Shown one piece after another: positions 8,463-39,220 of a stretch of 40,241 nt of DNA. The stretch spans positions 1 through 40,241 of IMG/VR virus record IMGVR_UViG_3300020181_000005, one strand, 5' to 3'. The first letter of the stretch is position 1; each line of letters begins with the position of its first letter. Made by a program: the position numbers and the translations under genes. The notes below the pieces were generated by a model that did not search any database, had not been told where the DNA came from, and worked only from the letters and a program-made list of their open reading frames with translations. The stretch is from a virus.

Positions 8463-8500
8463 TTGCGCGGTGTCGTCGGCCACCTGTAACTTCGTTCTCA
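8463..8500 (+). promoter_or_regulatory. Promoter-family copy A (leaderless)
   Basis: TTGCGC (8463) - 18 bp - TAACTT (8487) - CGTTCTC - ATG (8500). The segment is homologous to copy B over about 45 bp. Confidence 0.55.
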
Positions 8501-8706
8501 TGAGCGAAGCGAAGAACATCCGCAAGATCCTGACCGGCCTCGAGCAGCAGGGAGCACGCGTGAAGCCGACCCGCGACGGCTGGCAGATCCTGTGCCCATC
8601 GGGAGACATAGTGACGATGCACGGCACTGAGTCAGATCACCGGGCGATGCGCAACACGCGCAGTCGAATCAAGCGAGCCGGTCTGCAGTGGCCGCTCGAC
8701 AAGTGA
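8500..8706 (+). CDS. HicA-like small protein (tentative)
   Basis: 68 aa. IRKILTGLEQQGARVKPTRDGWQILCPSGDIVTMHGTESDHRAMRNTRSRIKRAGLQW resembles the HicA/YcfA toxin fold pattern. GC3 is lower than in the neighbours. The ATG lies exactly 7 nt after TAACTT. Confidence 0.4.
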   Translation: MSEAKNIRKILTGLEQQGARVKPTRDGWQILCPSGDIVTMHGTESDHRAMRNTRSRIKRAGLQWPLDK

Positions 8707-8717
8707 AGGGAGGCGGC

Positions 8718-9056
8718 GTGGCCGTCACAGATGAAGTGCGCATGGCGATCTACACCGAGGCGATGGGCGACCAGCCCAGTCGAGAGCTGACGCATCTCGA
8801 GCGCGCGGAGTACCACGCGGACAAGGCGTTCGAGCTCGCGCACTCGAACGCCCCGGAGCACGCTCAGCAGTCGCTGGTGCATTCGCAGCTCGCGAGCGTG
8901 CAGCTGCAGCTCGACGCTCTGAAGCGCGCGGAGATCGACCCTGAGCTCGTGCGACTCGCTCGCGATGGGCGCGACGCGATCGGGGCTGATTGGCCGCGCG
9001 GCGTGCTTGAGGCCCTGGTGGCGTTCATCGAGTACGTCGAGCACGCGAAGGGGTAG
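8718..9056 (+). CDS. hypothetical protein
   Basis: A GGGAGG ribosome-binding site lies 5-6 nt upstream of the GTG. 112 aa. Confidence 0.6.
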   Translation: MAVTDEVRMAIYTEAMGDQPSRELTHLERAEYHADKAFELAHSNAPEHAQQSLVHSQLASVQLQLDALKRAEIDPELVRLARDGRDAIGADWPRGVLEALVAFIEYVEHAKG

Positions 9057-9067
9057 GACACGCCGAA

Positions 9068-9100
9068 AGGTGCCCAGCTTGCACGTCGAGCTGGGCACCT
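9068..9100 (+). terminator. Terminator-like hairpin that encloses the -35 of promoter B
   Basis: A perfect 12-bp stem AGGTGCCCAGCT/AGCTGGGCACCT with a 9-nt loop. Confidence 0.6.
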
Positions 9101-9115
9101 GTAACTTAGTTCTCA
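9079..9115 (+). promoter_or_regulatory. Promoter-family copy B
   Basis: TTGCAC (9079) - 17 bp - TAACTT (9102) - AGTTCTC - A (9115). Confidence 0.6.
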
Positions 9116-9157
9116 CGACGCGAACAGCGTCACTCACTCCCAACAGAAAGACACACC

Positions 9158-10177
9158 ATGTCGCACGAACTGAACGAACTCGCCCCCGGCCAGCACTCCT
9201 ACGTCGGCGCCCGCGTCGACGCGTGGCACCGTCTCGGCGTCACCCTCGAGAGCACCTTCGACGCGCAGACCGCGCTCGAGAAGGGACTGCTCGCGAACTG
9301 GGACGTCCGCAAGGTGCCGCTGCTCGCCGTCGACGACAAGAGCGACCGGCAGCTCGAAGTCGACAACCGCTGGGCGACCGTCTACACGAACCCCCTCACC
9401 AAGCAGACGCAGTACCTCGGCGTCGTCGGCTCGCACTACGAGCCCATTCAGAATGAGACGCACGTCGATCTGCTGAATGCGATCGTCGACGAGAGCGGCG
9501 CGCACTTCGAGACGGCTGGATCTCTGCGCGGCGGCAAAGAGACGTTCGTCACGATGAAGATGCCGAAGACGATGCAGATCGGCGGGCAGGATCCGGTCGA
9601 CCTCTACCTCGTCGCGCTGAACAGCCACGACGCGAGCAGCGCATTCCGGTTCCTGATCACGCCCGTCCGCGTCGTCTGCGCCAACACTCAGGCCGCAGCG
9701 CTCGGCAGCGCACAGTCGTCGTTCTCGATCCGCCACGTGCGCGGCGCTCAGGGCCACGTGCAGGAAGCGCGCGAGGCGCTCGGGCTGACCTTCGCGTACC
9801 TCGACGCGTTCGAGCTCGAAGCTCAGCAGATGATCGAGAAGACGCTGACCGACAAGACCTTCGAGAAGGTCACCGCGCGCCTCTTCGACGCCGACGTCGC
9901 CACGACGACGCGTCAGAAGAAGACCGCAGCGCAGCACATCGAGGGCGTAATGAGCCTGTGGCACGGCGACTCGCCCACCATGAAGGACGTGAAGGGCACC
10001 CGCTGGGGCGGTTACCAGGCGATCACCGAGTACGCCGATCACTTCATGGACGTCCGCGCCGGAGGGCGCGACGTGACGCTCGCCCGGGCGGTGCGCACCG
10101 TCACGAGCAAGCCGACGATGCAGCTGAAGGAGCGCGCCTTCGCAACGCTCTCCCGCAAGGTGCTGGCGTTCGCGTGA
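9158..10177 (+). CDS. DUF932-like (phage/plasmid-like protein family) protein
   Basis: 339 aa. ...WHRLG...YLGVVGSHYEPIQNE...GGKETFVTMKMP...LYLVALNSHDASSAFRFLITPVRVVCANT... matches the DUF932/TIGR03299-type pattern as I remember it. Confidence 0.6.
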   Translation: MSHELNELAPGQHSYVGARVDAWHRLGVTLESTFDAQTALEKGLLANWDVRKVPLLAVDDKSDRQLEVDNRWATVYTNPLTKQTQYLGVVGSHYEPIQNETHVDLLNAIVDESGAHFETAGSLRGGKETFVTMKMPKTMQIGGQDPVDLYLVALNSHDASSAFRFLITPVRVVCANTQAAALGSAQSSFSIRHVRGAQGHVQEAREALGLTFAYLDAFELEAQQMIEKTLTDKTFEKVTARLFDADVATTTRQKKTAAQHIEGVMSLWHGDSPTMKDVKGTRWGGYQAITEYADHFMDVRAGGRDVTLARAVRTVTSKPTMQLKERAFATLSRKVLAFA

Positions 10178-10182
10178 CCCGC

Positions 10183-10212
10183 AGGGGGCGAGCTCACACG
10201 AGCTCGCCCCCT
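10183..10212 (+). terminator. Terminator-like hairpin after the DUF932-like gene
   Basis: A perfect 12-bp stem AGGGGGCGAGCT/AGCTCGCCCCCT with a 6-nt loop. Confidence 0.6.
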
Positions 10213-10218
10213 CTCGTG

Positions 10219-10232
10219 TAACATTGTTCGCA
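10219..10232 (+). promoter_or_regulatory. Promoter-family copy C (-10 only; leaderless)
   Basis: TAACAT (10219) - TGTTCGC - ATG (10232), the same 7-nt geometry as copy A. There is no clear -35. Confidence 0.4.
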
Positions 10233-10480
10233 TGACGACAGCGAAGCTACTCACGCTCAGCGATATCGCGGAGCGCATCGACGTCGGTGTCGACTCGATC
10301 CGCGTCTATCACCAGCGCGCATCGAAGAACCGGCGCGACGGCAACCCGCGCCCCGGAGATCTCCCCGCACCCGATCGCTACTACGGTCGATCCCCCGTCT
10401 GGAAGCTCGCGCAGATCATGGCCTGGGAGCGTTCTCGCCCCGGTCGCGGCGCGGGCGGCGGACGCAAACCCACCAGCTGA
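10232..10480 (+). CDS. Helix-turn-helix DNA-binding protein (excisionase/MerR-like)
   Basis: LLTLSDIAERIDVGVDSIRVY...PAPDRYYGRSPVWKLAQIMAWERSRPGRG is typical of actinophage Xis-type HTH proteins. Confidence 0.65.
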   Translation: MTTAKLLTLSDIAERIDVGVDSIRVYHQRASKNRRDGNPRPGDLPAPDRYYGRSPVWKLAQIMAWERSRPGRGAGGGRKPTS

Positions 10481-10494
10481 AAGAGAGCCACACC

Positions 10495-10638
10495 ATGAAG
10501 CCTCGTCTCTCGCTCCCCGTGTTCATCGGGAAGTACATCGTCGGCCCGCTCGTGCTGATCCTCGCGGCGCTCATCGTCGTCGCCGCGATCGTCGCCGTCG
10601 CGCGGCTGATCGTCGGCATGCTGTCGGGGTCGCTGTGA
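10495..10638 (+). CDS. small membrane protein (47 aa)
   Basis: Not in the ORF track because it is under 60 aa. GAGCCACACC-ATG; MKPRLSLPVFIGKYIVGPLVLILAALIVVAAIVAVARLIVGMLSGSL has one TM helix. Its stop overlaps the next GTG. Confidence 0.5.
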   Translation: MKPRLSLPVFIGKYIVGPLVLILAALIVVAAIVAVARLIVGMLSGSL

Positions 10639-10850
10639 GCGAGCTCGAGCGACGGCAGCGACTCACGCGCGGCAACCGCAAGTCGAAGACTCACTGGGTT
10701 CGCTACGTCGAGGCGGGCGTTATGGGTGGCCGCTTCGTCACTCTCTGCCGCAAGCGGATGGGCGTGAACGAGTCGAAGCAGGTCTGGGATCGCGTCGACT
10801 GCGTCCCCTGCGTGCAGGGCAAGGTCGAGCACGACCGGCTGCAGCGGTGA
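10635..10850 (+). CDS. hypothetical Cys-containing small protein
   Basis: GTGA coupling; 71 aa; ...LCRKRMG...CVPCVQ. Confidence 0.55.
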   Translation: MSELERRQRLTRGNRKSKTHWVRYVEAGVMGGRFVTLCRKRMGVNESKQVWDRVDCVPCVQGKVEHDRLQR

Positions 10851-11662: not shown

Positions 11663-11699
11663 TTGCGCTCGCCCCTCGGAGCGCGTAACTTAGTTCTCG
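11663..11699 (+). promoter_or_regulatory. Promoter-family copy D
   Basis: TTGCGC (11663) - 17 bp - TAACTT (11686) - AGTTCTC - G (11699). A weak 6-7 bp hairpin (11665-11684) overlaps it. Confidence 0.55.
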
Positions 11700-11730
11700 T
11701 CATCGCAACACTCCCAATGAAAGGCACACC

Positions 11731-12153
11731 ATGACCGGATACAACAAGGCGCTGGTCCTACAGGGCGTCCGCGACGAGCTCGCGGAAGCCACGCGCCGCG
11801 CCGACGTCGCCCACCAGAAGGCGCGCGCCGACTGGCAGAGCTCCGCCGAGCGGATCGGAAAGCTGCGCCGCGAAGCTCTCACCATCGTCGCGACCGCGCT
11901 CGCAATCGACGACGACGAAGAGCGCGCCCAGTACCTGTTCCCGAAGGGACGCATGTATAACAGCCCTCTGAACAGGCTCGAGGATGCAGGCCACCCGATC
12001 CCGCCCGAGCCGGAACGCGTGGTCACTCACCGCGAGAAGCAGCTGCAGAACGTCATCGCGATCATCGAGTCGGCAGACGCGCCGACCGTCACCGTGGCTG
12101 ATCTGCGTGCGCTCGGTGTGCTGCAGTTCGTCGCTGTCCCGAAGGGAGCCTGA
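11731..12153 (+). CDS. hypothetical protein
   Basis: Preceded by the conserved leader ACTCCCAATGAAAGGCACACC-ATG. 140 aa. Confidence 0.7.
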   Translation: MTGYNKALVLQGVRDELAEATRRADVAHQKARADWQSSAERIGKLRREALTIVATALAIDDDEERAQYLFPKGRMYNSPLNRLEDAGHPIPPEPERVVTHREKQLQNVIAIIESADAPTVTVADLRALGVLQFVAVPKGA

Positions 12154-15153: not shown

Positions 15154-15195
15154 GAACGCCGTCCCGTGAGTCCTTCGTCGACCGGGGCGGCGTTC
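15154..15195 (+). terminator. Hairpin separating the small-gene block from the packaging genes
   Basis: A 13-bp stem GAACGCCGTCCCG/CGGGGCGGCGTTC (one G-U pair) with a 16-nt loop. There is no clear U-tract. Confidence 0.5.
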
Positions 15196-15266
15196 ACGCG
15201 TCTCCGAGCATCCTCCGCGCGCACAGCGCAGGTACACTCGCATGAGGCAAACAGTAGGCGGGACCT

Positions 15267-15746
15267 ATGGCGACGAAAACAGCGAAGCAGAACGAGGCGG
15301 GCAAGTCGCGCACGCAGATCACGCTCGAGAACAAGCAGCGCGCTCAGAAGGCGCTGCAGCTTCGCACGATGCGCGTCTCATGGGAGTCGATCGCGAAGCA
15401 GTGCAACTATGCGTCGCGGGGCGCCGCCTACAACGCGGTGCAGCGTGAGCTGCAGCGGATCCCCCGCGAGGCTGCGAAGGAGCTCCGCACCGCTGAGCTC
15501 GAAGCGCTCGACGTCGCCCAACGTGCGATCGCCAACCGGATCGCGCGCGGCGACTTCGCTGCGATCGACCGCATGCTGCGGATCATGGACACTCGAGCGA
15601 AGCTGACCGGCCTGTACGAGAACATCGTCGACACGGGTGTCGATGAAGTGAAGGGCGTGCTGCAGGCGTGGCTCGCTGACGTGGAGAAGGAAGTCGACTC
15701 TGAGGATGCCGAGCTGGCGGAAGGCGAGCAGGAGGGCGACGCGTGA
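15267..15746 (+). CDS. terS: Terminase small subunit
   Basis: 159 aa upstream of terL. An HTH-like segment (MRVSWESIAKQCNYASRGAAYNAVQREL) is followed by ...AELEALD...GDFAAIDRMLRIMDTRAKLTGLY, a pattern common in actinophage TerS. Confidence 0.6.
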   Translation: MATKTAKQNEAGKSRTQITLENKQRAQKALQLRTMRVSWESIAKQCNYASRGAAYNAVQRELQRIPREAAKELRTAELEALDVAQRAIANRIARGDFAAIDRMLRIMDTRAKLTGLYENIVDTGVDEVKGVLQAWLADVEKEVDSEDAELAEGEQEGDA

Positions 15747-20906: not shown

Positions 20907-21172
20907 AGCGTCGGAGGGTGACGTGCCCGCGTCCTGACAAGGTGGCGCACCCTGATCTGTTCTCGGCGAAGCAGGCGGCGCGTACGTTCGCGCGGAAGCT
21001 GATCGCGCGGGGTGAGCGGTTCGAGCCGCTCTTCGGCTATGAGTGTCGCTGTGGGCGGTGGCACTCGACGCGGCATGCGCAGCACCAGGGGCGTGTGAAC
21101 GTGCTGCTGTGGGCGGTGCCGGATGATCTGCAGGTGTGGGCGCGTGGCGGCGTGTCCGAGTTGCCCGACTGA
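20903..21172 (+). CDS. hypothetical protein with a CxC...H motif
   Basis: GTGA coupling; 89 aa; ...GYECRCGRWHSTRH. Confidence 0.55.
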   Translation: MKRRRVTCPRPDKVAHPDLFSAKQAARTFARKLIARGERFEPLFGYECRCGRWHSTRHAQHQGRVNVLLWAVPDDLQVWARGGVSELPD

Positions 21173-21197
21173 GGTAGTGCGCGTAACTTAGTTCATG
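21161..21197 (+). promoter_or_regulatory. Promoter-family copy E
   Basis: TTGCCC (21161) - 17 bp - TAACTT (21184) - AGTTCAT - G (21197). Confidence 0.55.
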
Positions 21198-21233: not shown

Positions 21234-21473
21234 ATGTCCTCCCTCTTCGGAACCTCCCGCCAGGCGCTCGTGATCATCCACCAGCGCGAGGTCGGCACCG
21301 GCATCGCGCACAAGACCACGACTGCGCTGCGACTCGAGATCGACGCCGCTCGTCGCGCGGCCAAGAGCTTCCCTGTCGACCGCATGCACAGCGCGACGAT
21401 CGGCAAGCTGATCACGCTGCACGAGCTCACGGGCACCGCGTACCCCGTGAGCGGCGATCTCTTCGCAAGGTGA
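21234..21473 (+). CDS. hypothetical protein (cassette 1 of 3)
   Basis: Conserved leader ...ACTCCCAGTCACGAAAGGCACACC-ATG; 79 aa. Confidence 0.65.
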   Translation: MSSLFGTSRQALVIIHQREVGTGIAHKTTTALRLEIDAARRAAKSFPVDRMHSATIGKLITLHELTGTAYPVSGDLFAR

Positions 21474-21485
21474 CGAGATCTCAGC

Positions 21486-21515
21486 TGGGCGGCTGGTTGC
21501 GAGATCAGCCGCCCA
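21486..21515 (+). terminator. Terminator-like hairpin enclosing the -35 of promoter F
   Basis: A 10-bp stem TGGGCGGCTG/CAGCCGCCCA. The 10-nt loop contains TTGCGA. Confidence 0.55.
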
Positions 21516-21533
21516 CCTGTAACTTAGTTCCTG
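21497..21533 (+). promoter_or_regulatory. Promoter-family copy F
   Basis: TTGCGA (21497) - 17 bp - TAACTT (21520) - AGTTCCT - G (21533). Confidence 0.55.
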
Positions 21534-21562
21534 TCAGCGAAACACTCCCAGAAAGGCCGATC

Positions 21563-21811
21563 ATGTCGACTCTCCCCGCTCTCACCCCCGCTCAGCGGGC
21601 CATGCTCGACGCGATCAAGGCGGGCGCGGTCGTTCGCAGCAACCACCGCACCGATCGCTGGACGATCGACGGGCGCACTGCGACGAGCGGCGAGGGTCGC
21701 GTCATCGACGCGCTGCAGGCGAAGCGTCTCGTCCGCTGGGTCCACGAGGACGTGCGCATCGTCGGCATGAACGGCACGAAGCGGATGCTGCGTCTCGAGG
21801 CGAAGGCGTAG
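21563..21811 (+). CDS. hypothetical protein (cassette 2 of 3)
   Basis: Leader ...ACTCCCAGAAAGGCCGATC-ATG; 82 aa. Confidence 0.65.
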   Translation: MSTLPALTPAQRAMLDAIKAGAVVRSNHRTDRWTIDGRTATSGEGRVIDALQAKRLVRWVHEDVRIVGMNGTKRMLRLEAKA

Positions 21812-21812
21812 G

Positions 21813-21849
21813 TTGCGAACCCAGTCGCCCACCTGTAACTTAGTTCTCA
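21813..21849 (+). promoter_or_regulatory. Promoter-family copy G
   Basis: TTGCGA (21813) - 17 bp - TAACTT (21836) - AGTTCTC - A (21849). Confidence 0.55.
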
Positions 21850-21875
21850 CAAGCAGAACGAACGAAAGGCACACC

Positions 21876-22115
21876 ATGCAGAACAGCAACTACGCCCGCC
21901 GCCTCGCAGAGCGCGCCGCCCGCGCCACCGCTGCTCTCGTCGCCGCCGCTGACGAGCGCGACGCTCCCGCCGAGCTCGAGACGATCAACAATCGCATCGA
22001 CTACCTGAACGAGCTCGAGCCCACCGCCGACAACGAGACGCGACTGCGCTGGGCGCTGCAGGATCGCGCCTACGCTCGCCGCAGCGCGCGCCTCGCGAAG
22101 CGCGTCGCCGCGTGA
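21876..22115 (+). CDS. hypothetical helical protein (cassette 3 of 3)
   Basis: Leader ...GAAAGGCACACC-ATG; 79 aa. Confidence 0.65.
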   Translation: MQNSNYARRLAERAARATAALVAAADERDAPAELETINNRIDYLNELEPTADNETRLRWALQDRAYARRSARLAKRVAA

Positions 22116-22129: not shown

Positions 22130-22159
22130 AACGCCCCGGCTCGTCTGAGTCGGGGCGTT
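22130..22159 (+). terminator. Intrinsic terminator
   Basis: A 13-bp stem AACGCCCCGGCTC/GAGTCGGGGCGTT with a 4-nt loop, followed by TTTCTG. Confidence 0.8.
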
Positions 22160-22185: not shown

Positions 22186-22198
22186 TATGCTGTTCTCG
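22186..22198 (+). promoter_or_regulatory. Promoter-family variant K upstream of the scaffold and capsid genes
   Basis: TATGCT-GTTCTC-GTCAGC shares the discriminator and leader start with copies D-F. There is no clear -35. Confidence 0.35.
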
Positions 22199-22235
22199 TC
22201 AGCCGAACAGAGATTCGGGCACCGAGAGGGAGATC

Positions 22236-26212: not shown

Positions 26213-26722
26213 ATGGCAGTAGCAGATCGCACTCCGCTCGGCGCCACGACCACGAACCGGAAGTGGTTCCTCGACGTCGACGCTGCGAGCGACGCTGCGA
26301 CCCCCGACTGGACGGGCGTGCATGGCATCACTGCCTTCACGCCGGGCGTCGAGGGCTCGCTGCAGGACGACTCCGACTTCGACGGCGGCGGCTGGGGCTC
26401 GCAGACGAACACGCGGAACGCGTGGGCGAACGAGCTCACCGTGAAGCGCGGCACCGTCAAGGGCTCGACGCCGAAGGTCTACGATCCCGGCCAGGAGATC
26501 CTTCGTCTCGCCGGGGCTCGCACCGGCGAAGAGAACAGCGTGCATGTGCGCTGGTACGAGATGGAGCGCAACGGCCCCCGCGTCGAAGCGTACGAGGGCT
26601 GGGCTGCGGTGACGTGGACCGACGACGGCGGCGACAGCGCTGCTCTCTCGACGGCCACGATCACGCTCACCGGCCAGGGCGAGCGCATCGAGATCGCGCA
26701 CCCGGACACGACCGCGGGCTAA
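26213..26722 (+). CDS. Major tail protein
   Basis: 169 aa. GAAAGGA ribosome-binding site. It precedes the chaperone/frameshift pair, and a strong hairpin lies downstream. Confidence 0.75.
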   Translation: MAVADRTPLGATTTNRKWFLDVDAASDAATPDWTGVHGITAFTPGVEGSLQDDSDFDGGGWGSQTNTRNAWANELTVKRGTVKGSTPKVYDPGQEILRLAGARTGEENSVHVRWYEMERNGPRVEAYEGWAAVTWTDDGGDSAALSTATITLTGQGERIEIAHPDTTAG

Positions 26723-26733
26723 CTTAGTTCGCG
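26720..26733 (+). promoter_or_regulatory. Promoter-family motif copy H (no -35); overlaps the major tail gene stop codon
   Basis: The exact 11-mer TAACTTAGTTC starts at the TAA stop. The sequence 17 bp upstream (CGCACC) is not -35-like. Confidence 0.3.
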
Positions 26734-26746: not shown

Positions 26747-26784
26747 AAGGGGAGTCGTCAGCAGCTTGCTGGTCGGCTCCCCTT
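26747..26784 (+). terminator. Strong hairpin after the major tail protein gene
   Basis: Stem AAGGGGAGTCG...CGGCTCCCCTT plus an inner stem CAGCA/TGCTG, about 16 bp in total. It is followed by TTAGTTCGTTCTCA. Confidence 0.7.
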
Positions 26785-26812
26785 AGTTCGTTCTCACCAT
26801 AGGAGCAGCGTC

Positions 26813-27585: not shown

Positions 27586-29673
27586 ATGGCACTCGATCTC
27601 GGAGAGCTCGTCGCGAAGCTTCGCATTGACGACTCCGACTGGTCGGGCGCTCTCGATCGTGCTGACGGTAAGGCGCGGGGCTTCGGCTCGAGCGTGCTGG
27701 GCACGATGGGCGGCGTCGTCGGCGGCATCACTGCTCTGTGGGGCGGCGTCGAGATCGGCCAGTTCTTCATGGACGGCATCGACTACGCGTCGGATCTCAG
27801 TGAGACGCTGAGCAAGAGCACGAAGATCTTCGGCGACCAGGCGGGCGCTGTGGAGGCGTGGTCGCGTAACGCGTCGACGAGTGTGGGCCTGTCGCAGAAC
27901 GCGGCTGTCGCTGCGGCTGCGGGCTTCGGCGATATGTTCACGCAGATCGGCTTCGCCGGTGCTGAGGCAGCCAACATGAGCACGAACGCCGTGCAGATGG
28001 CGGCGGATCTCGGGTCGTTCTCGAACCTCGACACTGCCGACGTCGCCGACCGGATGAGTGCCGCGTTCCGAGGCGAATACGACTCGCTTCAGGCTGTCAT
28101 CCCCGGTATCAATGCGGCGCGCGTCGAGAGCGAAGCGCTCGCGATGACCGGCAAGGATACGGCGGCGTCGCTGACCGCTCAGGAGAAGGCTGCAGCTGTT
28201 CTCGCGATCGTGCAGAAGGACGGCGCTCGCGCGATGGGCGACTTCGCCGACACGAGCGACGGCTACGCGAACAGCTCGAAGATTGTCGCCGCTCAGATGG
28301 AAGAGCTCGGCGGCAAGGTTGGGCAGCTCGTGCTGCCCGCGCTGCAGGGGCTGCAGGCGATCCTGCTCGACAACGTCATCCCCGCGATGGAGGGTGTCGT
28401 CGAGTGGATCGGGCAGAACCTCGATCTGCTCGGCCAGCTCGGGACAGCGCTCGCGATCGCGGGCGGCGCCTGGGTGATCATGACTGCGGGCGTCGCCGCA
28501 TACAACGCGATCATGACGACGTACCGGGCGATCCAGGCTGCGGGCACGGTCGCGCAGTGGGCCTTCAACGCTGCAGCTGCAGCGAACCCTGTCGGGCTCG
28601 TCATCATCGCGATCACCGCTCTCATCGCCGTAATCGTGCTGCTCGTCATGAACTGGGACACCGTCGTCTCGTTCATCACCGAGATCTGGAACGGCTTCAT
28701 CGCGTGGATCGTCGAGGTCACTGCAGGCTTCGTCGAGGGCTGGAACGCCATGTGGGCGGCGGTCGGCGCGTGGATCTCTGAAGTGTGGAACGGCATCGTG
28801 ACTGCCGTGTCCGGCTTCGTGCAGGGCATGGTCGACTTCATCGTCGCTGTGATCACCGGCTACGTCTCGTTCTGGATGGGTGTCTGGCAGAGCGTGCTCG
28901 ACTTCGTCGTCGGCGTGTGGAACGGGATCGTGTCGGGCGTCTCGGGCTTCGTGACGGCGCTCGTGAACTTCATCATTGCCGCGATCACGGGCTACGTCGC
29001 GTTCTGGCAGAGCGTTTGGCAGGGTGTCGCATCGTTCGTCGCTGGCGTGTGGAACGGCATCATGTCGACCGTCTCGGGGATCGTGAGCGGGCTCGTCAAC
29101 TTCTTCCGCTCGAGCTTCCAGGGCGTCGCCGACTTCCTGTCGGGTATCTGGCGCGGCATCGCTTCAGTGATCTCTGACACCTGGAACGGCGTCATGAGCT
29201 TCCTCAGCGGCATCCCCGGGCAGATCATGGGATTCTTCAGCGGCATCGGCGGCTGGCTCTACAGCGCGGGACGCGATCTGATCAACGGTCTGCTGAACGG
29301 GATCCGCTCGCTGGCTGGCACGATCGGCTCGTTCTTCCTGAACATGCTGCCCGACTGGATCGTCGGTCCCTTCAAGGCTGCTATGGGCATCGCGTCGCCG
29401 TCGAAGCTGTTCCGCGAGTACGGGCAGAACACCGTGCAGGGGTATCTGCGCGGTGTCGAGGATCTGAAGCCCGATCTGGACGCCGAGATGGCGCAGCTCG
29501 TGAACGCTCCCGAAGTGCAGCTCGCGGGGGCTGCAGCGCCGAGCTCGAGCGTCGACGCCAGGCCGAACGTGACGACGCACAAGGAGATCCACTACCACGC
29601 AGCTGAGCACCAGTCGCTCAGCTCCGAGGAAGCGCTGTTTGCAGCGCTGTCGAGCCCCAGGGCGGAGGACTGA
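27586..29673 (+). CDS. Tape measure protein
   Basis: 695 aa after the chaperones. It has hydrophobic repeat blocks (VWNGIV(S/T)xVSGFVxxxVxFIxAxITGYVxFW, repeated). Confidence 0.9.
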   Translation: MALDLGELVAKLRIDDSDWSGALDRADGKARGFGSSVLGTMGGVVGGITALWGGVEIGQFFMDGIDYASDLSETLSKSTKIFGDQAGAVEAWSRNASTSVGLSQNAAVAAAAGFGDMFTQIGFAGAEAANMSTNAVQMAADLGSFSNLDTADVADRMSAAFRGEYDSLQAVIPGINAARVESEALAMTGKDTAASLTAQEKAAAVLAIVQKDGARAMGDFADTSDGYANSSKIVAAQMEELGGKVGQLVLPALQGLQAILLDNVIPAMEGVVEWIGQNLDLLGQLGTALAIAGGAWVIMTAGVAAYNAIMTTYRAIQAAGTVAQWAFNAAAAANPVGLVIIAITALIAVIVLLVMNWDTVVSFITEIWNGFIAWIVEVTAGFVEGWNAMWAAVGAWISEVWNGIVTAVSGFVQGMVDFIVAVITGYVSFWMGVWQSVLDFVVGVWNGIVSGVSGFVTALVNFIIAAITGYVAFWQSVWQGVASFVAGVWNGIMSTVSGIVSGLVNFFRSSFQGVADFLSGIWRGIASVISDTWNGVMSFLSGIPGQIMGFFSGIGGWLYSAGRDLINGLLNGIRSLAGTIGSFFLNMLPDWIVGPFKAAMGIASPSKLFREYGQNTVQGYLRGVEDLKPDLDAEMAQLVNAPEVQLAGAAAPSSSVDARPNVTTHKEIHYHAAEHQSLSSEEALFAALSSPRAED

Positions 29674-29674
29674 C

Positions 29675-30553
29675 GTGCGGGTAATGTCTCTGAGCTCGGT
29701 AGGCGGCGAGGTCGTCGCTGACGGTCGATCCGGCGTGCGCGCGAAGACGCGTCTGCGTGGCACGGGGCTGCCCCCTGTCGCTACGCAGTGGTTCGAGGGC
29801 GCCGGTGACGGCGCCGTGTACCGCACGGGGCGCGTGCTCGCTCGAACGATGGATCTCGATCTGAAGGTGTACGGCAAGAATCGCGAGCAGGTGCGCGCGG
29901 GGCTGTCGCTGCTGGGCAAGATCTTCGCGCCCGGTGCGGGCGACGTGCGGCTGACGGTCGATCTCGACGGCGATCCGTGGTTCGTCGACGTGCGACGCAC
30001 GGGCGGCGGCGATTGGTCGTGGGACAGCGACACGGACGGCAGTACGTTCGTGAAGACGATCATTACCGTGCAGGCGGGTGACCCGTATTGGACGCGCGTC
30101 GACGAAGAGCAGCGGTCGATCACTCCGGGCGGACTGGATCGCGGCCTGCTCAACAATGTGTCGCTGTCGCAGCTGGCGGTGTCGACGACGACGGCGCTGG
30201 GTGAGGTCGATATCGAGAACACCGGCGACGTCGAGGTCTTCCCTCGCACGACGATCTGGGCGCCGTTCACCGGCTTCGAGCTCGTTTCTCCGAAGGGTGA
30301 GCGGGTGCTGTGGGGAAGTGGCGGGCGCGGCACGTTGGGTGAGCCGAAGACGTCGGGCTTCATCACGGTCGATCACGTGTTGGGCACGGTCGAGGACGAA
30401 ACAGGGCAGAATCTCTACCGGGGGCTGGGTAACGCTCCCCGATTCTGGGCGCTGCAGCCGGGGACGAGTCGAGCACTGATCACGGCGTTCGACGGTGGAG
30501 CAGGCACCCGGATTGACATGCTGTGGCAGCCGAAGCGATGGGTAATGTTCTAA
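29675..30553 (+). CDS. Distal tail protein (Dit-like minor tail protein)
   Basis: The GTG lies 4 nt after a GGAGGAC site; an ATG at 29684 is an alternative start. About 292 aa, directly after the tape measure gene. Confidence 0.6.
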
Positions 30554-33500
30554 TGAGGCGAACCGACGTTCTGGTCGAGATCCGCAACCGCGAGCTCGAG
30601 CGGGTGGGCGTGATTACGCCCCGGTATCTGAACCTCAAGGCGACGCTGCGGCACAACAATGTGGGCGACTGGGAGCTGAAGCTGCCGGGCAATCACCCGC
30701 GCGTGCCGGATCTCTCGACTCCCGGCTCTGGTGTCGTCGTGTCGATGCTGAATGAGTCGGGCGAGCTCGAGCCGCGTTTCTCGGGGCCGACGTCGCACCC
30801 GAAGCGCAAGCGCGATCGCGAGAACCCGGACGGCACGCTTACGTTCACGGGCGTTACGGACACCATTCTGCTCGCTGACGCGCGCGCGTTCCCTGACCCG
30901 ACGAACCCGAACCCTGCTCAGCAGGCGAAGACGAACGACACGCGCAGCGGCAACGCTGAGGCGCTGCTGCGCGCGTACGTGAGTCTGAACATCACCGCTG
31001 CAGGGGCGCCCCCGCAGCGCGTGGCGGGGCTGAGGCGCTTCCTCCGCGTCGAAGAGCAGTCGCTGCAGCGTGGCGCATGGATGACGAAGTCTCCGCGCTT
31101 CCAGAACCTGCTCGAGCTCTGCAACGAGATCGGCACACTCGCCCAGCTGGGGTTCCGCGTCATTCAGCGGGGCGACGATCTGGTCTTCGAGGTGCTCGAC
31201 GTGCGCGACGTGAGCGACACTGTGCGACTCGACATTGACAACGGCACTCTGATCAGCGAAGAGGTTGAAGAGTCCGGGCCGAGCGTGACACGCGTCATCG
31301 TCGCCGGGCAGGGGCAGGGCACTGAGCGGCAGATCCTGACGCGCACGACCGCAGAGTCGGCGGCAGCCGAGAACACGTGGGGTCGCGTCATCGAGGACTT
31401 CGTCGACGCTCGCGACACGGACGACGTCGCTGAGCTCGAGCAGTCGGGTGACGAGAAGCTCGTCGAGGGAGGCTCACCCGCGACGAGTGTGAAGGTGATC
31501 GCTGCCGACGATCAGACGATGCGCTATTCGATCGACTGGCGTGAAGGCGATATCGTCGGCGCTGTCGTCTCCGGGCAGAGCGTCTCGACCGTCGTAACGG
31601 CGGCGACGATCATCGTCAACAGCGAGTTCGTCGGCGTAGGCGCCGCGATCGGCGACGTCGTCGGCTTCGACAAGAATGCGGCGCTCACGAAGCGCGTCGA
31701 CGATATCGACTCCCGCGTCGAGCGCATCGAGCGCACACACGAGGGCGGCGGCGACGGACTTCCCGGCCCTGAGGGGGAGCAGGGCCCTCCCGGCCCGCCG
31801 AACGCGCTGACGATCGGATCTGTGACGAGCAGCGGAGACGGCGGAGCGGGCTCCGTGACGATCACGGGCGAGCCGCCCGCGCAGACTCTGAGCTTCGTTC
31901 TGCCGCGCGGATCTCGAGGCTCACAGGGGCCGCAGGGCCCGATCGGCGCGACCGGCCCGACGGGACCGACTGGCCCGAAGGGCGATAAGGGCGACACCGG
32001 CGCAACCGGCCCTCAGGGGCCGATAGGTGCGACCGGGGCGCAGGGCCCTCAGGGCGTCAAGGGTGACACGGGTGCAACGGGTGCTGTAGGAGCTCCCGCG
32101 ATCGTGTCGACTCACTCGACGGCGACAGCGCAGATCGTCGGGCCCGGGTCGATGGTCGGCCTGTCGCTCGAGACGGCGACGTCGGCGCTGCGCTGGGGCG
32201 ACGGGCAGACCGTGACGATGCGACCTGACGCCGACAAGAGCATTTTCATGACGGGCACTGTGGGCGGGGGATCGCCGACGGGCTACGTCTTCGACATTCA
32301 GGACACGAACGGCGTCGTCGGCGCTTCGTACACCGGCTGGTCAGTGACGATCTCGGGAGCTCGCGGCGCGAAGGGCGACACGGGATCTCGCGGCCCGACT
32401 GGCGCGACTGGACCGACGGGGCCGAAGGGTGACACTGGTGCTACGGGCCCGCAGGGGCCTCAGGGGCTGAAGGGCGACACCGGCGCTACCGGACCGACCG
32501 GACCGAAGGGTGACACTGGGCCGCAGGGTCTTCAGGGGCCCAAGGGAGATACGGGAGCTGTCGGCCCTCAGGGCCCGACGGGGGCGACGGGCGCGACCGG
32601 ACCGAAGGGTGACACCGGCGCGACGGGGCCTCAGGGACCGTCAGGCACGATCACGTCAGCGACTGCTGCAGCGCTCGCTGCAGGGGCGACTCCGACGATC
32701 ACGCTCGGCGGTACACCGCAGGCGCGTACTCTCGCGTTCGGCATCCCCAGGGGCGCTACGGGCGCAACCGGGCCGCAGGGCCCTGTCGGGGCGACTGGCC
32801 CTCAGGGGGCGAAGGGCGACACGGGCGATCGTGCGCGCGTTTCTGCGCAGGCGGACGGCACCGCGCAGCTCGTCGCGCCGGGGCAGATATTCTCGATCGG
32901 CCACACTCCGGGGCCTGAAGTGCTCATGTGGGGCGACGACCAGACGGTGATCATCCGCCCGTTTGACAGCTCGACGGACTACATGATCGGCACGCTCGGC
33001 GGCGGTGGGCCGACCGGCTACTTCTTCGATATCACGGACACAGTCGGCCTCGTCGGGACGTCGTACACCGGCTGGTCTATCGCGATATCGGGCCCTCGCG
33101 GTCCTCGCGGCGAGATCGGTCCTGTCGGGCAGCGTGGCACGCCGGGCGATCCCGGCATCACGCACGCAGAGTCGTCGAGCTCGGCAGATATCCCTGCTGT
33201 CGGTTCGACGCTGCAGCTCGACATGGTCCCGCCTGCGAACCGTCTGCAGTGGGGCGACCGGCAGACGGTGCTGCTGCGACCGACGAGCAATGACCAGCTG
33301 TGGGTGCTCGCGATGCTCGTCGATCAGGGCAGCAGTACGCACACGTACGAAGTGATCGACACGAACGCTCAGCTGGGCAACTCGTACAGCGGCTGGTCGG
33401 TCGCGATCGCTGGCGTGCGCGGTCCTCAGGGCGAGCAGGGGCCTCGAGGGAACACGGGCCCGACGGGAGCGACCGGACCGCAGGGTGTGAAGGGTGACAC

Positions 33501-34584
33501 CGGGGCGACCGGACCTCAGGGGCCCGTCGGTGCGACGGGACCGACGGGGCCTGCAGGGACGATCACGGGCGCGAGCGCGACTGCTCTCGCCGAGGGTGCA
33601 GCGCCGACTGTGGCGCTGGGTGGCAGCGCGACGGCGCGCACGTTCGCGTTCGGTATCCCCAGAGGGGCGACGGGAGCTCAGGGCCCGCAGGGCGTGAAGG
33701 GCGATACGGGCGCGACTGGGGCGACTGGCCCGGCTGGTCCGACGGGGCCCAAGGGTGACACGGGCGCAGTGGGTCCGACGGGGCCGACCGGCCCGAAGGG
33801 GGACACGGGAGCTCAGGGCCCGAAGGGCGATACTGGCGCTGCCGGGCCGAAGGGCGACACGGGGGCGACGGGACCGACCGGCGCGACTGGCCCGAAGGGT
33901 GACAAGGGCGACAAGGGCGACCCCGCTCGAGTGAGCACTACATCGACTTCGAGCATCATCATCGGGACCGTGTCGCCGACGTTCGCGCTCGCTCAGCCGC
34001 TCGATCTGACCGTCGGCGCGTACGTGCGCGCGTCGCGGATCGGCGACCCGACGGTCTACATGGCCGGGCATGTCACGGCGATCTCGGCGTCGTCGATCAC
34101 GTTCACCGTGTACGAGTCGGCGGGGGCGGGGACGTTCACCGACTGGCGCATCGAGCTCGCGGGACGTCGCGGCGAGCAGGGCCCTCGCGGTCTGACCGGC
34201 GTCACGGGCGCGACTGGCCCGAAGGGCGACACGGGGGCGACCGGGCCGCAGGGACCGCCTGGACCGGGCATGGAAGACACCGGCTGGCTGTCTCTGACGC
34301 CGAGCGGCAGTTTCTCGTCGGGTGGCGTGGTGCGTTATCGCGTCATGGATCGAGTCGTTCACCTGCGCCTCGACGTGCAGGCGCCCAACGGCGTGCCGGG
34401 CGGCGCGGTGATCGCGACGCTGCCGCCGTCTGCGCGTCCCGGCGCGGATGCGTGGCTGCCTGCAGCGTTCTGGGGCAACGTCTTCACGCCGATCAAGGTG
34501 ACGTCGGGCGGAGTGATCTCTGTAGGCGCGTCGATGGGCGGCGGTACGGGCGTGCTGGGTAACGCCTCATTCCCGGTCGGGTAG
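30553..34584 (+). CDS. Minor tail protein: Sipho_Gp37-like N-terminal domain fused to a long collagen-like beaded fibre with a globular C-terminal head
   Basis: TAATG coupling. The N-terminus [45 protein letters not shown] is Gp37-like. Many Gly-X-Y tracts are interrupted by repeated globular modules. 1343 aa. Confidence 0.85.
31756..34269 (+). repeat. In-frame collagen-like (Gly-X-Y)n tracts alternating with two families of repeated modules
   Basis: [25 protein letters not shown]-type triplets. About 45-aa modules occur three times (..LGG..A(R/Q)T(L/F)(A/S)F..PRG..). About 85-90-aa modules occur four times (..WGD.QTV..RP...Y(T/S)GWS(V/I).I(S/A)G.RG). Confidence 0.9.
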
Positions 34585-36294: not shown

Positions 36295-36296
36295 TC

Positions 36297-37127: not shown

Positions 37128-37609
37128 AGAGCGAGCTGCTCGTCGGCGCCAAGCGCGTCCGGCTTGAGAGGGCGATCTGGGTTGTTGACCTGATCGCCTA
37201 TCTCGTGCTGGCCGTGGCTGGCGTCGGCGCAGCAGTCGACCCATCGGAGTACGTGCAGCGCACTGTGCAATTCGAGTGGGCGCTGTGGGTCTGGGGCTTC
37301 CTGCTCGCGGGGGGCGGCGCTGTCGCGTTCATCGGGCGGCTGTCGCGAGTGTGGGCGCTCGAGTTCCCGGCGAACGTCGCTGCAGGGTGGGGCGCCGCTC
37401 TCTACGGGCTCATTCTCGTGCCGACGATCCAGTCGGGCGGTTCGCTCGCGCTGGCGGCTATCGTCGTCGTGGCGGGGCTGTTCGTGCTGCGGCGCTACAT
37501 AGAGCTGAAGATCTTCACGAACGAGCCGGGCGTCGACTCGATCCGTAAGCGGCTGGATGCCGCATTCAGGAGACGAACCAAGAACATCGTGCCCCGCATG
37601 CACTACTGA
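37124..37609 (+). CDS. Membrane protein (about 4 TM), holin-like
   Basis: GTGA-coupled to the endolysin gene. Multiple hydrophobic helices. Confidence 0.6.
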   Translation: MKSELLVGAKRVRLERAIWVVDLIAYLVLAVAGVGAAVDPSEYVQRTVQFEWALWVWGFLLAGGGAVAFIGRLSRVWALEFPANVAAGWGAALYGLILVPTIQSGGSLALAAIVVVAGLFVLRRYIELKIFTNEPGVDSIRKRLDAAFRRRTKNIVPRMHY

Positions 37610-37619
37610 GGGGGCTGCT

Positions 37620-38024
37620 GTGAACTTCGAGGCGATGCTGCCCTGGCTGGTAGGTGTGGGCGGCGGTGGGGGACTGCTCGCGCTGGTGAAGGCGATCATG
37701 GAGGTCGTCGGCAAGGTGCGGGCGGGCGTGTCTGCGCGCGAGGGGAAGAGGCGCGTGGATCTCGTCGAGCAGCGGGACGCGGCGGTGCTGAAAGCGCAGC
37801 TGGCCGAAGAGCGCGCGAACCGCTACCGCGATGAGCGCGACGTGGCCGATCAGGTGGCGCTCGCGTCGCGACGTAACGAGCAGCGCGCTCGTGAGCATGC
37901 GGCGGAGCTGCGCATCGAGCTCATGGAGCGTGCGGGGATGCGGCGCGAAGAGCTCCCACCGTGGCCTGAAATGGAGGACACTATTCCTCGTAGCGCACTA
38001 CCCAATCGAAAGGATGACCAATGA
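37620..38024 (+). CDS. Membrane-anchored coiled-coil protein (lysis-associated)
   Basis: GTG start. One N-terminal TM (LPWLVGVGGGGGLLALV), then a charged helical region. 134 aa. Confidence 0.55.
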   Translation: MNFEAMLPWLVGVGGGGGLLALVKAIMEVVGKVRAGVSAREGKRRVDLVEQRDAAVLKAQLAEERANRYRDERDVADQVALASRRNEQRAREHAAELRIELMERAGMRREELPPWPEMEDTIPRSALPNRKDDQ

Positions 38025-38281
38025 CCAATACCCCTGGTGTGGGCGATCATGTCGCCCCCAGTGACACTCCGAACGTCGTGGTGCAGAGCCCCGGCGTTCG
38101 CAAGGCGATCAACGTCGGAGTGTCGGCTGTCGCGATCGTGCTCGGCACGGTGATCGTCGTCGACGCTGCTGCGCCGGAGTTCGATCTGGCTCAGTTCACG
38201 AACCCTGTTTCGGCGGCGGTGCTGTACCTCGCGAGCGTGTTCAACCTCGCGGTGAGCCTGCCGAACACGCCGCGCCGCTGA
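38021..38281 (+). CDS. Small 2-TM membrane protein, holin-like
   Basis: ATGA coupling; 86 aa; two hydrophobic helices. Confidence 0.6.
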   Translation: MTNTPGVGDHVAPSDTPNVVVQSPGVRKAINVGVSAVAIVLGTVIVVDAAAPEFDLAQFTNPVSAAVLYLASVFNLAVSLPNTPRR

Positions 38282-38309
38282 CAGGCGACGCTCTCACAGG
38301 CGAACAGCG

Positions 38310-38339
38310 CGCCCTCGGTGTCTTCGGACGTCGGGGGCG
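38310..38339 (+). terminator. Intrinsic terminator at the end of the late/lysis operon
   Basis: GC-rich stem CGCCCTCG.../...CGGGGGCG with an inner GTC-TTCG-GAC tetraloop, followed by TTTCTGTG. Confidence 0.75.
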
Positions 38340-38372
38340 TTTCTGTGCCCGCAGATCGCCGCTGAGCTGGCC

Positions 38373-38390
38373 GCGTTTCACGTGAAACGC
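38373..38390. promoter_or_regulatory. Perfect 18-bp palindrome GCGTTTCACGTGAAACGC (candidate operator)
   Basis: Read directly. It lies in the 220-bp non-coding region between the late terminator and the first early-region gene. Confidence 0.4.
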
Positions 38391-38504
38391 GAGCGCTGAC
38401 GGACACGCCCGAGATGCACGACGGTTAGACAACGTTGTTCTACTGGTAATAGCATCGTGTCAACGAGCCAGGCGCTCGACTCCCCTACACACGAAAGGCA
38501 CACC

Positions 38505-38927
38505 ATGACGAATGACGAAGCAGTGCAGGCGCTGCGCGAGCTGCGCGAAGCGCGCCCGGCACTCGACCCCGAAGAGGTCGTACGTCGCGCGACGATGATC
38601 CTCGACCGCAGCACGCTCTGCCCGCTGGATCTCACGACGTATCTCGCCGTCGACCGTGGACTCGAGGGCGTCGCTCTCGCCCGCACCGTTGGCCGGTTCG
38701 CGACTCGCGTCGCCGAGCTGTACGAGAGCAAGCATGGCGCCCGCCCCCTGAAGCGCTACGAGTTCGTGCCCGGTGTCGGCATGCGACCCGTGAGCGCCTA
38801 CGTCGAAGACGACCGCCCCCTGTTCGATCGCGCATGGCGCGAGATCACCGGCGACTGGGACGCTCTCGGCACGAAGATCGACGCGCTGTGCGTGAATGAA
38901 GAGACGATGCTGCGGGCGGTGAGCTGA
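38505..38927 (+). CDS. hypothetical protein (first gene of the early region)
   Basis: Exact conserved GAAAGGCACACC-ATG; 140 aa. Confidence 0.7.
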   Translation: MTNDEAVQALRELREARPALDPEEVVRRATMILDRSTLCPLDLTTYLAVDRGLEGVALARTVGRFATRVAELYESKHGARPLKRYEFVPGVGMRPVSAYVEDDRPLFDRAWREITGDWDALGTKIDALCVNEETMLRAVS

Positions 38928-38928
38928 C

Positions 38929-39177
38929 GTGGCCGTGTTCGCCTTCGAGCGTGAGCTGTCTATCCCCGTCGAGGCTGGCGGCGTCGAGATCTCGCGACTC
39001 CACGTCGCGATCATCGACAGCGCGTCGCTGGATCGGATCAAGTTCGACGGTCAGCGCGGCGCCGACTCGACGCGCACGCTCGAGCAGATCGAGAAGGTGC
39101 TGCGGCAGCCTGCGCCGACGGCGGAGCGAGTGTCGCTGGCGCTCGAGCTCGTCGAAGAGTGGCGGCTGAAGCAGTGA
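38929..39177 (+). CDS. hypothetical protein
   Basis: The GTG lies 1 nt after the upstream stop. 82 aa. Confidence 0.6.
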   Translation: MAVFAFERELSIPVEAGGVEISRLHVAIIDSASLDRIKFDGQRGADSTRTLEQIEKVLRQPAPTAERVSLALELVEEWRLKQ

Positions 39178-39194
39178 GCGGCGCAAGTCAGCGC

Positions 39195-39220
39195 TAACTT
39201 AGTTCTACTCGTTCTAACTT
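39195..39220 (+). promoter_or_regulatory. Promoter-family copy I, with a second TAACTT 20 bp downstream
   Basis: TAACTTAGTTCTACTCGTTCTAACTT. No clear -35. Confidence 0.35.

Follow-up and report, generated by a model that had tools for sequence, protein, structure and literature searches.

The 40,241-nt window analyzed here, the whole of the IMG/VR virus record IMGVR_UViG_3300020181_000005, belongs to an uncultured phage of high-GC Actinobacteria and carries the 11-mer TAACTTAGTTC seven times, always on the plus strand. We consider it probable that this repeat represents the –10 hexamer (TAACTT) and the first five discriminator bases (AGTTC) of a family of host-type, sigma-70/SigA-like promoters. 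Under the proposed mechanism, host RNA polymerase with its housekeeping sigma factor would bind TTGCNN (–35) and TAACTT (–10), spaced 17–18 bp apart, open the AT-rich island within a genome of ~67% GC, and begin transcription at the purine 7 nt past the hexamer. Starts at 8500 and 10232 would coincide with the A of an ATG and give leaderless mRNAs, and those at 9115, 11699, 21197, 21533, and 21849 would give leaders of 27–43 nt. At 9102, 10219, 21520, and a partial copy at 26783, a strong hairpin closing the preceding gene would overlap the –35 element or the spacer, and the family, together with a few other promoter-like sites, would cut the one-directional genome into short, independently transcribed units.

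Repeat Counts and Promoter Geometry

The initial annotation, made by a model from the letters of the DNA, had located the exact 11-mer at 9102, 11686, 21184, 21520, 21836, 26720, and 39195 and suggested a comparison with shuffled sequence. All seven copies are present, against an expected count of 0.00 in dinucleotide-preserving shuffles. Allowing up to two mismatches gave nine sites where 0.64 were expected and added the copies at 8487 (TAACTTCGTTC) and 10219 (TAACATTGTTC); with TATGCTGTTCTC at 22186–22197, these are the variants already listed in that annotation. Its statement that the copies lie between genes or at a gene end also held, every copy being intergenic save that at 26720, which supplies the major tail protein gene with its stop codon, TAA.

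TTGC occurs 17–18 nt upstream in six of nine copies (the seven exact ones plus 8487 and 10219), compared with a background frequency of 0.0013 at that offset. The –35-type hexamers have the positions first reported for them: TTGCAC at 9079, TTGCGC at 11663, TTGCCC at 21161, and TTGCGA at 21497 and 21813 are followed by a 17-nt spacer and TTGCGC at 8463 by one of 18 nt. The copies at 10219, 26720, and 39195 have no TTGC-type –35. The –10 hexamers, TAACTT (eight copies), TAACAT, and TATGCT, each fit TANNNT. A purine 7 nt past the hexamer, described earlier for most copies, is found in eight of the nine TAAC-type copies; the exception is 39195, where position 14 is C and the nearest purine, at position 13, lies 6 nt past the hexamer. 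All seven full cassettes have A or G at position 14. At 8500 and 10232 this purine is the A of a start codon, as had been proposed, with the ATG exactly 13 nt from the motif start and 7 nt after the hexamer. The discriminator had been called invariant as AGTTCTC; AGTTC is indeed invariant in the seven exact copies, but the next two bases are TC in only three of them (9102, 11686, and 21836) and AT, CT, GC, or TA elsewhere.

A position weight matrix derived from the copies was overfitted and gained only the site at 26783, and we replaced it with a sequence-only covariance model (R1) built from the seven full cassettes, whose E-values are rough. The model splits the copies into two tiers, with the full cassettes, ~55 nt each, scoring 32–44 bits and the partial copies 5.6–11.8 bits. 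The cassettes of the upper tier are listed below.

8463–8500, plus strand: P1, full cassette with –35 TTGCGC (8463–8468), 18 nt, TAACTT (8487–8492), CGTTCTC, and ATG at 8500; 40.6 bits; predicted leaderless promoter of a 68-aa gene (8500–8706)
9069–9115, plus strand: P2, full cassette with an 11-bp-stem hairpin (9069–9099), –35 TTGCAC (9079–9084) in its loop, and the core at 9102–9112; predicted start A9115 and 43-nt leader to the DUF932 gene (ATG 9158)
10184–10232, plus strand: P3, cassette with a hairpin (10184–10211) in place of the –35, TAACAT (10219–10224), TGTTCGC, and ATG at 10232; predicted leaderless, –10-only promoter of an 82-aa helix-turn-helix (HTH) gene (10232–10480)
11663–11699, plus strand: P4, full cassette with TTGCGC, 17 nt, TAACTTAGTTC (11686–11696), and predicted start G11699; 32-nt leader ending in GAAAGGCACACC, then ATG 11731; at the head of a long unit extending to the terminase, portal, and MuF-like genes
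21161–21197, plus strand: P5, full cassette with TTGCCC, 17 nt, the core at 21184–21194, and predicted start G21197; 37-nt leader, then a 79-aa gene (ATG 21234) without a homologue in the closest relative, L124
21487–21533, plus strand: P6, full cassette with a hairpin (21487–21514), –35 TTGCGA (21497–21502) in its loop, and the core at 21520–21530; predicted start G21533 and 30-nt leader to an 82-aa gene (ATG 21563); best copy at 44 bits
21813–21849, plus strand: P7, full cassette with TTGCGA, 17 nt, the core at 21836–21846, and predicted start A21849; 27-nt leader, then a 79-aa gene (ATG 21876)

Conservation at Orthologous Sites

The nearest cultured relatives are the Microbacterium foliorum phage Appa (L126) and its group, with ~73% DNA identity in the terminase gene only; closer uncultured relatives were gathered by capsid protein (L122, L123, and L124) and by DUF932 protein (L127, L128, L129, and L130). 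The Appa-group phages are 95–100% identical at the DUF932 promoter region and too close for footprinting. Across the wider set, the DUF932 promoter reads TTGACA-17-TATTGT-TGTTCAC-G in L127, TTGACA-17-TATCTT-TGTA(T/C)CT-G in L128 and L130, and TTGCGC-17-TATCTT-TGTTCAT-G in Appa, and a five-way alignment leaves TTG, TA...T, and GT invariant upstream of the leader, along with five isolated single bases. Upstream of the HTH gene, a TANNNT hexamer lies 6–7 nt before the same methionine in all five phages compared (TAACAT, TACTAT, TACTAT, TAACGT, and TATCAT), with no Shine–Dalgarno sequence and with the remaining upstream DNA unalignable. The orthologues share their N terminus (MTTAKLLTL in three of the five), the protein is 65–79% identical across the five phages, and the gene is probably leaderless. 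In the window, the P1 and HTH ATGs are preceded by GTTCTC and GTTCGC and likewise have no Shine–Dalgarno sequence.

Other members of the family are conserved as well. The P1 orthologue in L130 reads TTGTGC-17-TAACTT-TGTTCCC-ATG; those of the scaffold promoter at 22186 are TATGCT-GTTCCT-G in L124, TAGACT-GTTCTC-A in L123, and TAGACT-GTTGCT-G in L127; and the Appa site equivalent to 39195 (21146) is a full TTGCGC-17-TATCTTTGTTCAT promoter. Model R1 found same-strand intergenic matches of 13.6–29 bits in L130 (two), L124, L128, L013 (IMGVR_UViG_2974565550_000001), L123, and Appa (two), and nothing above 6.2 bits in a negative control, 21 kb from a Microbacterium resistens prophage that carries a DUF932 gene but no such promoter. 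The reading as sigma70/SigA promoters, put forward in the initial annotation, is thus supported by the geometry, by variation confined to TANNNT, by the TTGACA-17 orthologues, and by the TANNNT hexamer of all five HTH genes.

In Mycobacterium smegmatis, ANNNT is found at –6 to –13 in 79% of promoters, with TANNNT preferred and no base preference in its NNN; a consensus –35 is lacking, and leaderless transcripts make up 24% of the total (PMC6448022). The window promoters resemble these in having TANNNT 6–13 nt upstream of the predicted start, a purine start after a pyrimidine, frequent leaderless arrangement, and a –35 that is weak or dispensable. They differ in that 11 consecutive bases are fixed, whereas M. 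smegmatis promoters show neither an NNN preference nor a conserved discriminator.

Several observations weigh against the promoter reading. A generic sigma-70 scan flagged none of these sites; its silence is explained by the low scores of TAACTT and TTGCNN against TATAAT and TTGACA. The copies at 26720 and 39195 are without a –35, and the former also lies 5' of a strong hairpin, which is odd for a promoter. Some of the relatives' copies leave TANNNT, with TTACTT in L124 and CAACTT in L123. Finally, the fixed AAC within the hexamer and the AGTTC after it are not explained by SigA recognition alone.

Excess Conservation of the Core

Between copies, the 11-mer is 94% identical and the flanks 31–45% (31% over the 24 nt upstream and 42% over the 19 nt downstream). 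The initial annotation had judged the discriminator more conserved than a housekeeping promoter needs, a judgment borne out by this difference and by the free NNN of M. smegmatis (PMC6448022). The sharp edges of identity point to selection on the core and argue against recent duplication or long gene-conversion tracts. An all-against-all BLASTP comparison found no paralogues among the proteins downstream of the copies; as these genes are mutually unrelated, the repeat is a feature of the control regions rather than of gene duplication.

Spread of one cassette by plain duplication, also suggested in the initial annotation, is accordingly poorly supported, and we give next to no credence to the copies being functionless relics or recombination linkers that were copied with incoming genes and kept by recency. 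P6 and P7 are 89% identical over the 36 nt from –35 to –10 (repeat family D17), the phage encodes RecE/RecT-like proteins, and the promoter-led genes in the slot between the MuF-like and scaffold genes are not the same in L124 as in the window, all of which would fit such an origin. The near-random flanks around a perfect core speak of selection and not of recency, however, and orthologous sites keep the elements even between phages with protein identities of only 50–79%. The three promoter-led small genes in the slot (21234–22115) have no homologues in L124, which carries other promoter-led genes there; given this difference in content, the units behave as exchangeable, moron-like cassettes and the slot is hypervariable.

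Among relatives, the hexamers vary (TAACTT, TATCTT, TACTAT, and TAAGCT) and most keep GTTC afterward, which makes two layers of constraint, one on GTTC across most of the group and one homogenizing the whole 11-mer in this genome only. The excess could possibly come from optimization for the polymerase of this phage's host or from a second factor reading the core; the initial annotation had raised a phage-specific factor or a shared operator. With such a second reader, the promoters would also be bound at the 11-mer by a phage factor or a non-SigA host factor that switches the whole set together, amounting to a phage-lineage-specific code laid over SigA promoters and coordinating nearly all units without a polymerase or sigma of the phage's own. 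We regard this as unlikely, in either the general or the more specific form. The candidates for such a reader would be the conserved, leaderless 82-aa HTH protein (10232–10480) or an unrecognized polymerase-binding factor.

The step in identity at the core edges would fit a second reader, and since orthologous promoters differ in their NNN, the homogenization is lineage specific. The core contains a 9-bp palindrome, AACTTAGTT, and both changes in the copy at 10219 (TAACATTGTTC) fall at the paired positions 5 and 7 and keep it intact. The two core-only copies retain a perfect 11-mer without a –35, and the HTH protein is well conserved over five phages that all have GTTC-type promoters. The composite TTGCGC-N17-TAACTTAGTTC had 14 matches in representative genomes, none of them actinobacterial; the exact composite is therefore no common chromosomal promoter, although a pattern this strict cannot show the host consensus.

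Against a second reader, the palindrome is broken in the copy at 8487 and missing in relatives' promoters such as TATCTTTGTTC and TAAGCTAGTTC, and its 4-bp half-sites are centered only 5 bp apart, a poor fit to the usual HTH dimer. A single compensatory pair is an anecdote noticed post hoc, and one sequence could equally become fixed if selection favored the strongest promoter for the host polymerase. Pfam and PHROG scans turned up no family of repressors, activators, sigma factors, or anti-sigma factors. For a phage sigma factor or RNA polymerase, these covered most open reading frames (ORFs), including all motif-adjacent ones, although very divergent proteins could escape them. The HTH protein had no significant Pfam match and no PDB sequence match, and its best sigma match, Sigma70_r4_2, was insignificant (E = 0.24). 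As neither a phage polymerase nor a phage sigma was detected in the ORFs scanned, the set probably does not consist of promoters for such enzymes.

Hairpins, Leaders, and the Start-Associated Repeat

A strong hairpin (z < –4.5) adjoins only four of the 12 copies, those at 9102 (z = –5.1), 10219 (z = –5.2), 21520 (z = –4.6), and 26783 (z = –5.6); the arm sequences differ from copy to copy and the remaining copies have weak hairpins or none, so the element does not include the hairpin as a fixed component. The hairpin loop contains the –35 hexamer at 9102 and 21520. At such places, the preceding transcription unit appears to end in the same DNA as the –35 or spacer of the next promoter. The tail, UGUAACUUAGUUCUC, is U-rich and contains no run of U, and a terminator scan calls none of these sites.

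The same hairpins could belong to a signal acting in RNA, with the hairpin and UGUAACUUAGUUCUC serving as a terminator tail or as an RNase cleavage site in read-through transcripts; cleavage would then divide one long polycistronic transcript into units, two of them with a 5'-terminal AUG. Beyond the four hairpins and the U-richness of the motif, this alternative can draw on the copy at 26783, which retains TTAGTTCGTTCTC past its hairpin without a good –10, and on the orientation of the copies: all are on one strand, like nearly all genes, so strand bias cannot separate a DNA from an RNA signal. We nevertheless think it very improbable. It leaves the TTGC at a fixed 17–18 nt, the TTGACA of the orthologues, and the TANNNT-confined variation unexplained, a strong hairpin adjoins no more than the four copies named, the terminator scan was silent, and Rfam 15 gave no match at gathering score anywhere in the window.

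Returning to the promoter reading, the leaders that it predicts carry a second repeat at their 3' end.

11719–11733, plus strand: start-associated repeat GAAAGGCACACC-ATG, with exact copies at 11719, 21222, 21864, and 38493
9146, 4939, 10483, and 40007: near copies of GAAAGGCACACC-ATG with 1–2 mismatches

The eight sites within two mismatches (four exact and four near) compare with 0.03 expected, and GAAAGGCACACC-ATG is more conserved than a ribosome-binding site would need. Four of the five predicted leaders end in GAAAG(G/A)CACACC-ATG, and the leader from 21533 ends in a diverged GAAAGGCCGATC-ATG. Judged by the placement of the repeat, the true start of the gene called at 38457 is ATG 38505. 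Around the transcription start there is also an inverted repeat, GTTC...GAAC, with a spacer of 4 to 11 nt depending on the copy or relative; it may result simply from a T-rich discriminator beside an A-rich leader and was therefore not used as evidence.

Further Copies and Their Surroundings

Outside the full cassettes, the window holds the following variant and partial copies.

22186–22198, plus strand: promoter with the –10 variant TATGCT-GTTCTC-G, 7.5 bits; heads the scaffold/capsid/tail-shaft unit (ATG 22236)
26720–26730, plus strand: core-only copy, a perfect 11-mer whose TAA is the major tail protein stop, 11.8 bits; promoter role uncertain
26747–26784, plus strand: strong hairpin, 3' of the major tail protein gene and 5' of the partial copy at 26783
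26783–26797, plus strand: partial copy TTAGTTCGTTCTCAC, 5.6 bits, with a poor –10; tail assembly chaperone gene (GTG 26813) downstream
38430–38443, plus strand: degenerate copy CAACGTTGTTCTAC (repeat family D16); its leader ends in GAAAGGCACACC-ATG (38493–38507)
39195–39205, plus strand: core-only copy, a perfect 11-mer with a weak –35 CAGTGA, 5.9 bits

The stretch 26747–26797 is probably a terminator or attenuator. The copy at 39195 occupies the single gap that separates the late genes from the recombination/replication block, which runs from 39235 across the circular junction to ~8015, and is a candidate promoter of that block. The 22186 promoter is preceded by a terminator-like hairpin with a TTTCTG tail (22132–22157). 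Other promoter-like sites are TAGACT at 4922–4928 and 6567–6573 and TACACT-CGCATGA (15233–15245), which lies past a hairpin (15154–15195) and before the gene in the small-terminase position; L127 has TAGACT-CGCATGA. TAGACT is also found in Appa gaps, equals the scaffold –10 of L123 and L127, and opens the motif of phage cluster EC.

The scaffold/capsid leader (22198–22235) contains a small 5'-proximal hairpin that may stabilize the mRNA; its stems differ among the window, L124, and L123 (CCGAA...TTCGG, CCGAAC...GTTCGG, and CCCG...CGGG). A perfect 18-bp palindrome, GCGTTTCACGTGAAACGC (38373–38390), occurs once in the window, 3' of a terminator-like hairpin (38309–38339), and its 12-bp core, TTTCACGTGAAA, once in Appa (10561–10572, in the gap from the major tail protein gene to the chaperone gene) and a single time in L129 (9912–9923, upstream of the DUF932 gene). 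A different palindrome, AGTTAGC(T/C)AACT, lies just upstream of or overlapping the DUF932 promoter –35 in L127 (~1540), L128 (~5850), and L130 (~7445), with the form AGTTGCCCAACT in L129 (~9925 and 15590); it looks like an operator and is missing from the DUF932 promoter of the window.

Upstream of P1, the ORF 8055–8489 was rejected as a gene. The stretch holds a tRNA-Gly (anticodon ACC, 8034–8106, plus strand) and a minus-strand gene, which places the copy at 8487 in a divergent intergenic region. A 12-bp-stem hairpin (8117–8150) that follows the tRNA could terminate from both directions, and Appa has a tRNA-Gly at the syntenic place on the opposite strand. The minus-strand gene (80 codons, 8402 to 8160, in the region 8160–8437) had no Pfam or PHROG match and looks leaderless, with TTGAGA-17-TACTAT-GTATCC-ATG. 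It stands back to back with P1, 25 bp separating the two –35 hexamers, a layout like that of a divergent switch region.

In Appa, gene 32 (21045–21176 region) overlaps the TTGCGC-17-TATCTTTGTTCAT promoter, and its GenBank call looks inconsistent with the promoter family. Orthologue alignment places the probable start of gp52 (32408) three codons further on, at a leaderless ATG. The start of gp50 (30821) may lie past a leader whose 5' hairpin, GTGAG...CTCAC, has a covarying counterpart, GTCAC...GTGAC, in the twin promoter at 21146. Within region 1–830 of L013 (53.9 kb, 68% GC), two members of the family, TTGCGC-17-TAACTTAGTTCGT-G followed at a distance of 750 nt by TTGTGC-17-TAGCTTTGTTCTC-A, have a common upstream box, TCAGCGGAGTTG. 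An IMG/VR scan for CTGTAACTTAGTTC gave 93 single-copy matches that were chance-like except for L013 with its two members. A metagenome scan for CACCTGTAACTTAGTTC gave seven chance-like matches, six of them in DNA of 36–48% GC and none with the family's flanking elements, and found no sibling genome carrying the extended motif. The literature search found no paper with TAACTTAGTTC in this context and no transcript start mapping for Microbacterium phages.

Genome, Lifestyle, and Host

The two ends of the window (1–127 and 40115–40241) are 100% identical over 127 nt, which indicates a circular or terminally redundant assembly and a complete genome of ~40,114 bp. The gene content is siphovirus-like, and every gene is on the plus strand except the 80-codon gene described above. 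The genome encodes RecE-like, RecT-like, replication initiator, DnaB helicase, SSB, ParB-like, and Mom-like proteins; the DUF932 protein and the small HTH protein; and, in a third group, has genes for terminase, portal, MuF-like, scaffold, major capsid, major tail protein, tail assembly chaperone, tape measure, and tail proteins. Pfam and PHROG scans of the window ORFs detected no integrase, immunity repressor, or ParA/partition system. As neither an integrase nor a repressor is detectable, the phage is probably lytic. Its host is probably a member of the Microbacteriaceae; the Curtobacterium phage Parvaparticeps, which like Appa is among the nearest cultured relatives though a distant one, has a capsid protein ~56–57% identical to that of the window.

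Several genes have features of their own. The RecE-like gene likely has its GTG start at 40019 and reads across the circular junction. A Mom-family protein (7152–8015; PF25680, E = 1e-48) suggests DNA modification by the phage. The gene in the small-terminase position (15267–15746) matches phrog_645 "Rnase E," a label that is probably misleading. A 1353-codon tail gene (30523–34584) contains long arrays of 9-nt period (repeat families D1 and D2) coding for collagen-like Gly-X-Y, and three 132-nt repeats (family D3) lie within the tape measure gene, at 28783–29159.

The inferred lifestyle bears on one further explanation of the repeat. Cluster A mycobacteriophages have stoperators, short intergenic sites in one orientation and many copies, which need an immunity repressor and a temperate lifestyle. 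The sites in the window could in principle be of this kind, asymmetric sites at which an immunity repressor blocks elongation: the motif is short, asymmetric overall, and present in 7–10 copies of one orientation in short intergenic gaps. Stoperators require neither a fixed promoter geometry nor a fixed distance to the start codon of leaderless units, however, and the window has both. With no repressor, integrase, or partition system detected, no sign of a temperate lifestyle, and the Appa group being lytic (PMC7302621), we conclude that the set is no stoperator system and hold such a role to be exceedingly improbable. Appa is circularly permuted with all genes rightward (PMC7302621).

Comparison with Known Systems

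The closest described system is the start-associated sequence (SAS) and extended start-associated sequence (ESAS) of cluster K mycobacteriophages, and the window has an element of the same sort in another lineage and of unrelated sequence. In Adephagia, the ESAS has seven intergenic copies of 46–47 bp with SigA-like –35 and –10 elements 17–18 bp apart and an imperfect inverted repeat, and the SAS is a 13-bp sequence 3–9 bp from the start codon of 13–19 genes; neither is yet assigned a clear role (PMC11373665). An analogous pair is found in Microbacterium cluster EF, with the start-associated sequence GGGAAAGGACCCC (PMC7302621).

The window shares with these about seven intergenic reiterations (here as cassettes of ~55 nt) and the SigA-like elements with their spacing. 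Likenesses of a looser kind are an inverted repeat beside some of the copies and a second, unusually conserved ribosome-binding repeat at the start codon (GAAAGGCACACC). Apart from GAAAGG, the sequences are unrelated; neither an integrase nor a repressor is detectable in the window phage, whose host is probably no mycobacterium. Conservation in the window peaks at the –10 and discriminator and not at the inverted repeat, which is strong in only three full cassettes and differs in sequence each time. Two copies are leaderless and hence without a start-associated repeat; the repeat itself abuts the ATG, unlike the SAS, and has only four exact copies and four with 1–2 mismatches. The leaderless variants and the hairpins overlapping the –35 are additions relative to the ESAS.

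The Microbacterium phages of clusters EC and EI carry an 18-bp motif, TAGaCTaTaGGTgTaAgC, in 12 copies 21–30 bp upstream of start codons, with function unknown, and encode their own sigma factor (PMC7302621). The host family is probably the same as for the window phage; also shared are the single orientation, the short intergenic gaps, and a set distance to the start codon, including use of the slot beside the MuF-like gene; the EC motif also opens with the TANNNT-type TAGACT of the promoter-like sites in the window and its relatives. The sequence differs, however, no sigma was detected in the window phage, and neither a –35 nor a leaderless arrangement is reported for EC or EI. With stoperators, the likeness is limited to a short site with many one-orientation intergenic copies; the window sites have promoter geometry, and their phage shows no repressor or temperate lifestyle.

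Reiterated intergenic motifs are common in actinobacteriophage clusters and are mostly reported without a known function (PMC7302621). The probable promoters described here are a known kind of feature, of which they form a clean example, and do not point to a new mechanism. Their anatomy is unusually clear, with a TTGACA-type –35 in orthologues and –10 variation within TANNNT, and the predicted leaderless genes would pin the start to the base. This group of phages is therefore well suited for testing whether ESAS-type motifs are strong host-type promoters only or carry a phage-specific signal as well; a second reader of the core, if true, would hint at what the unexplained ESAS-type motifs do in other actinophages. 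The cassettes also correct gene starts, those of Appa gp52 and gp50 and of the window genes at 8500 and 38505, and the 55-nt units are candidate compact promoters, leadered or leaderless, for Microbacteriaceae genetics.

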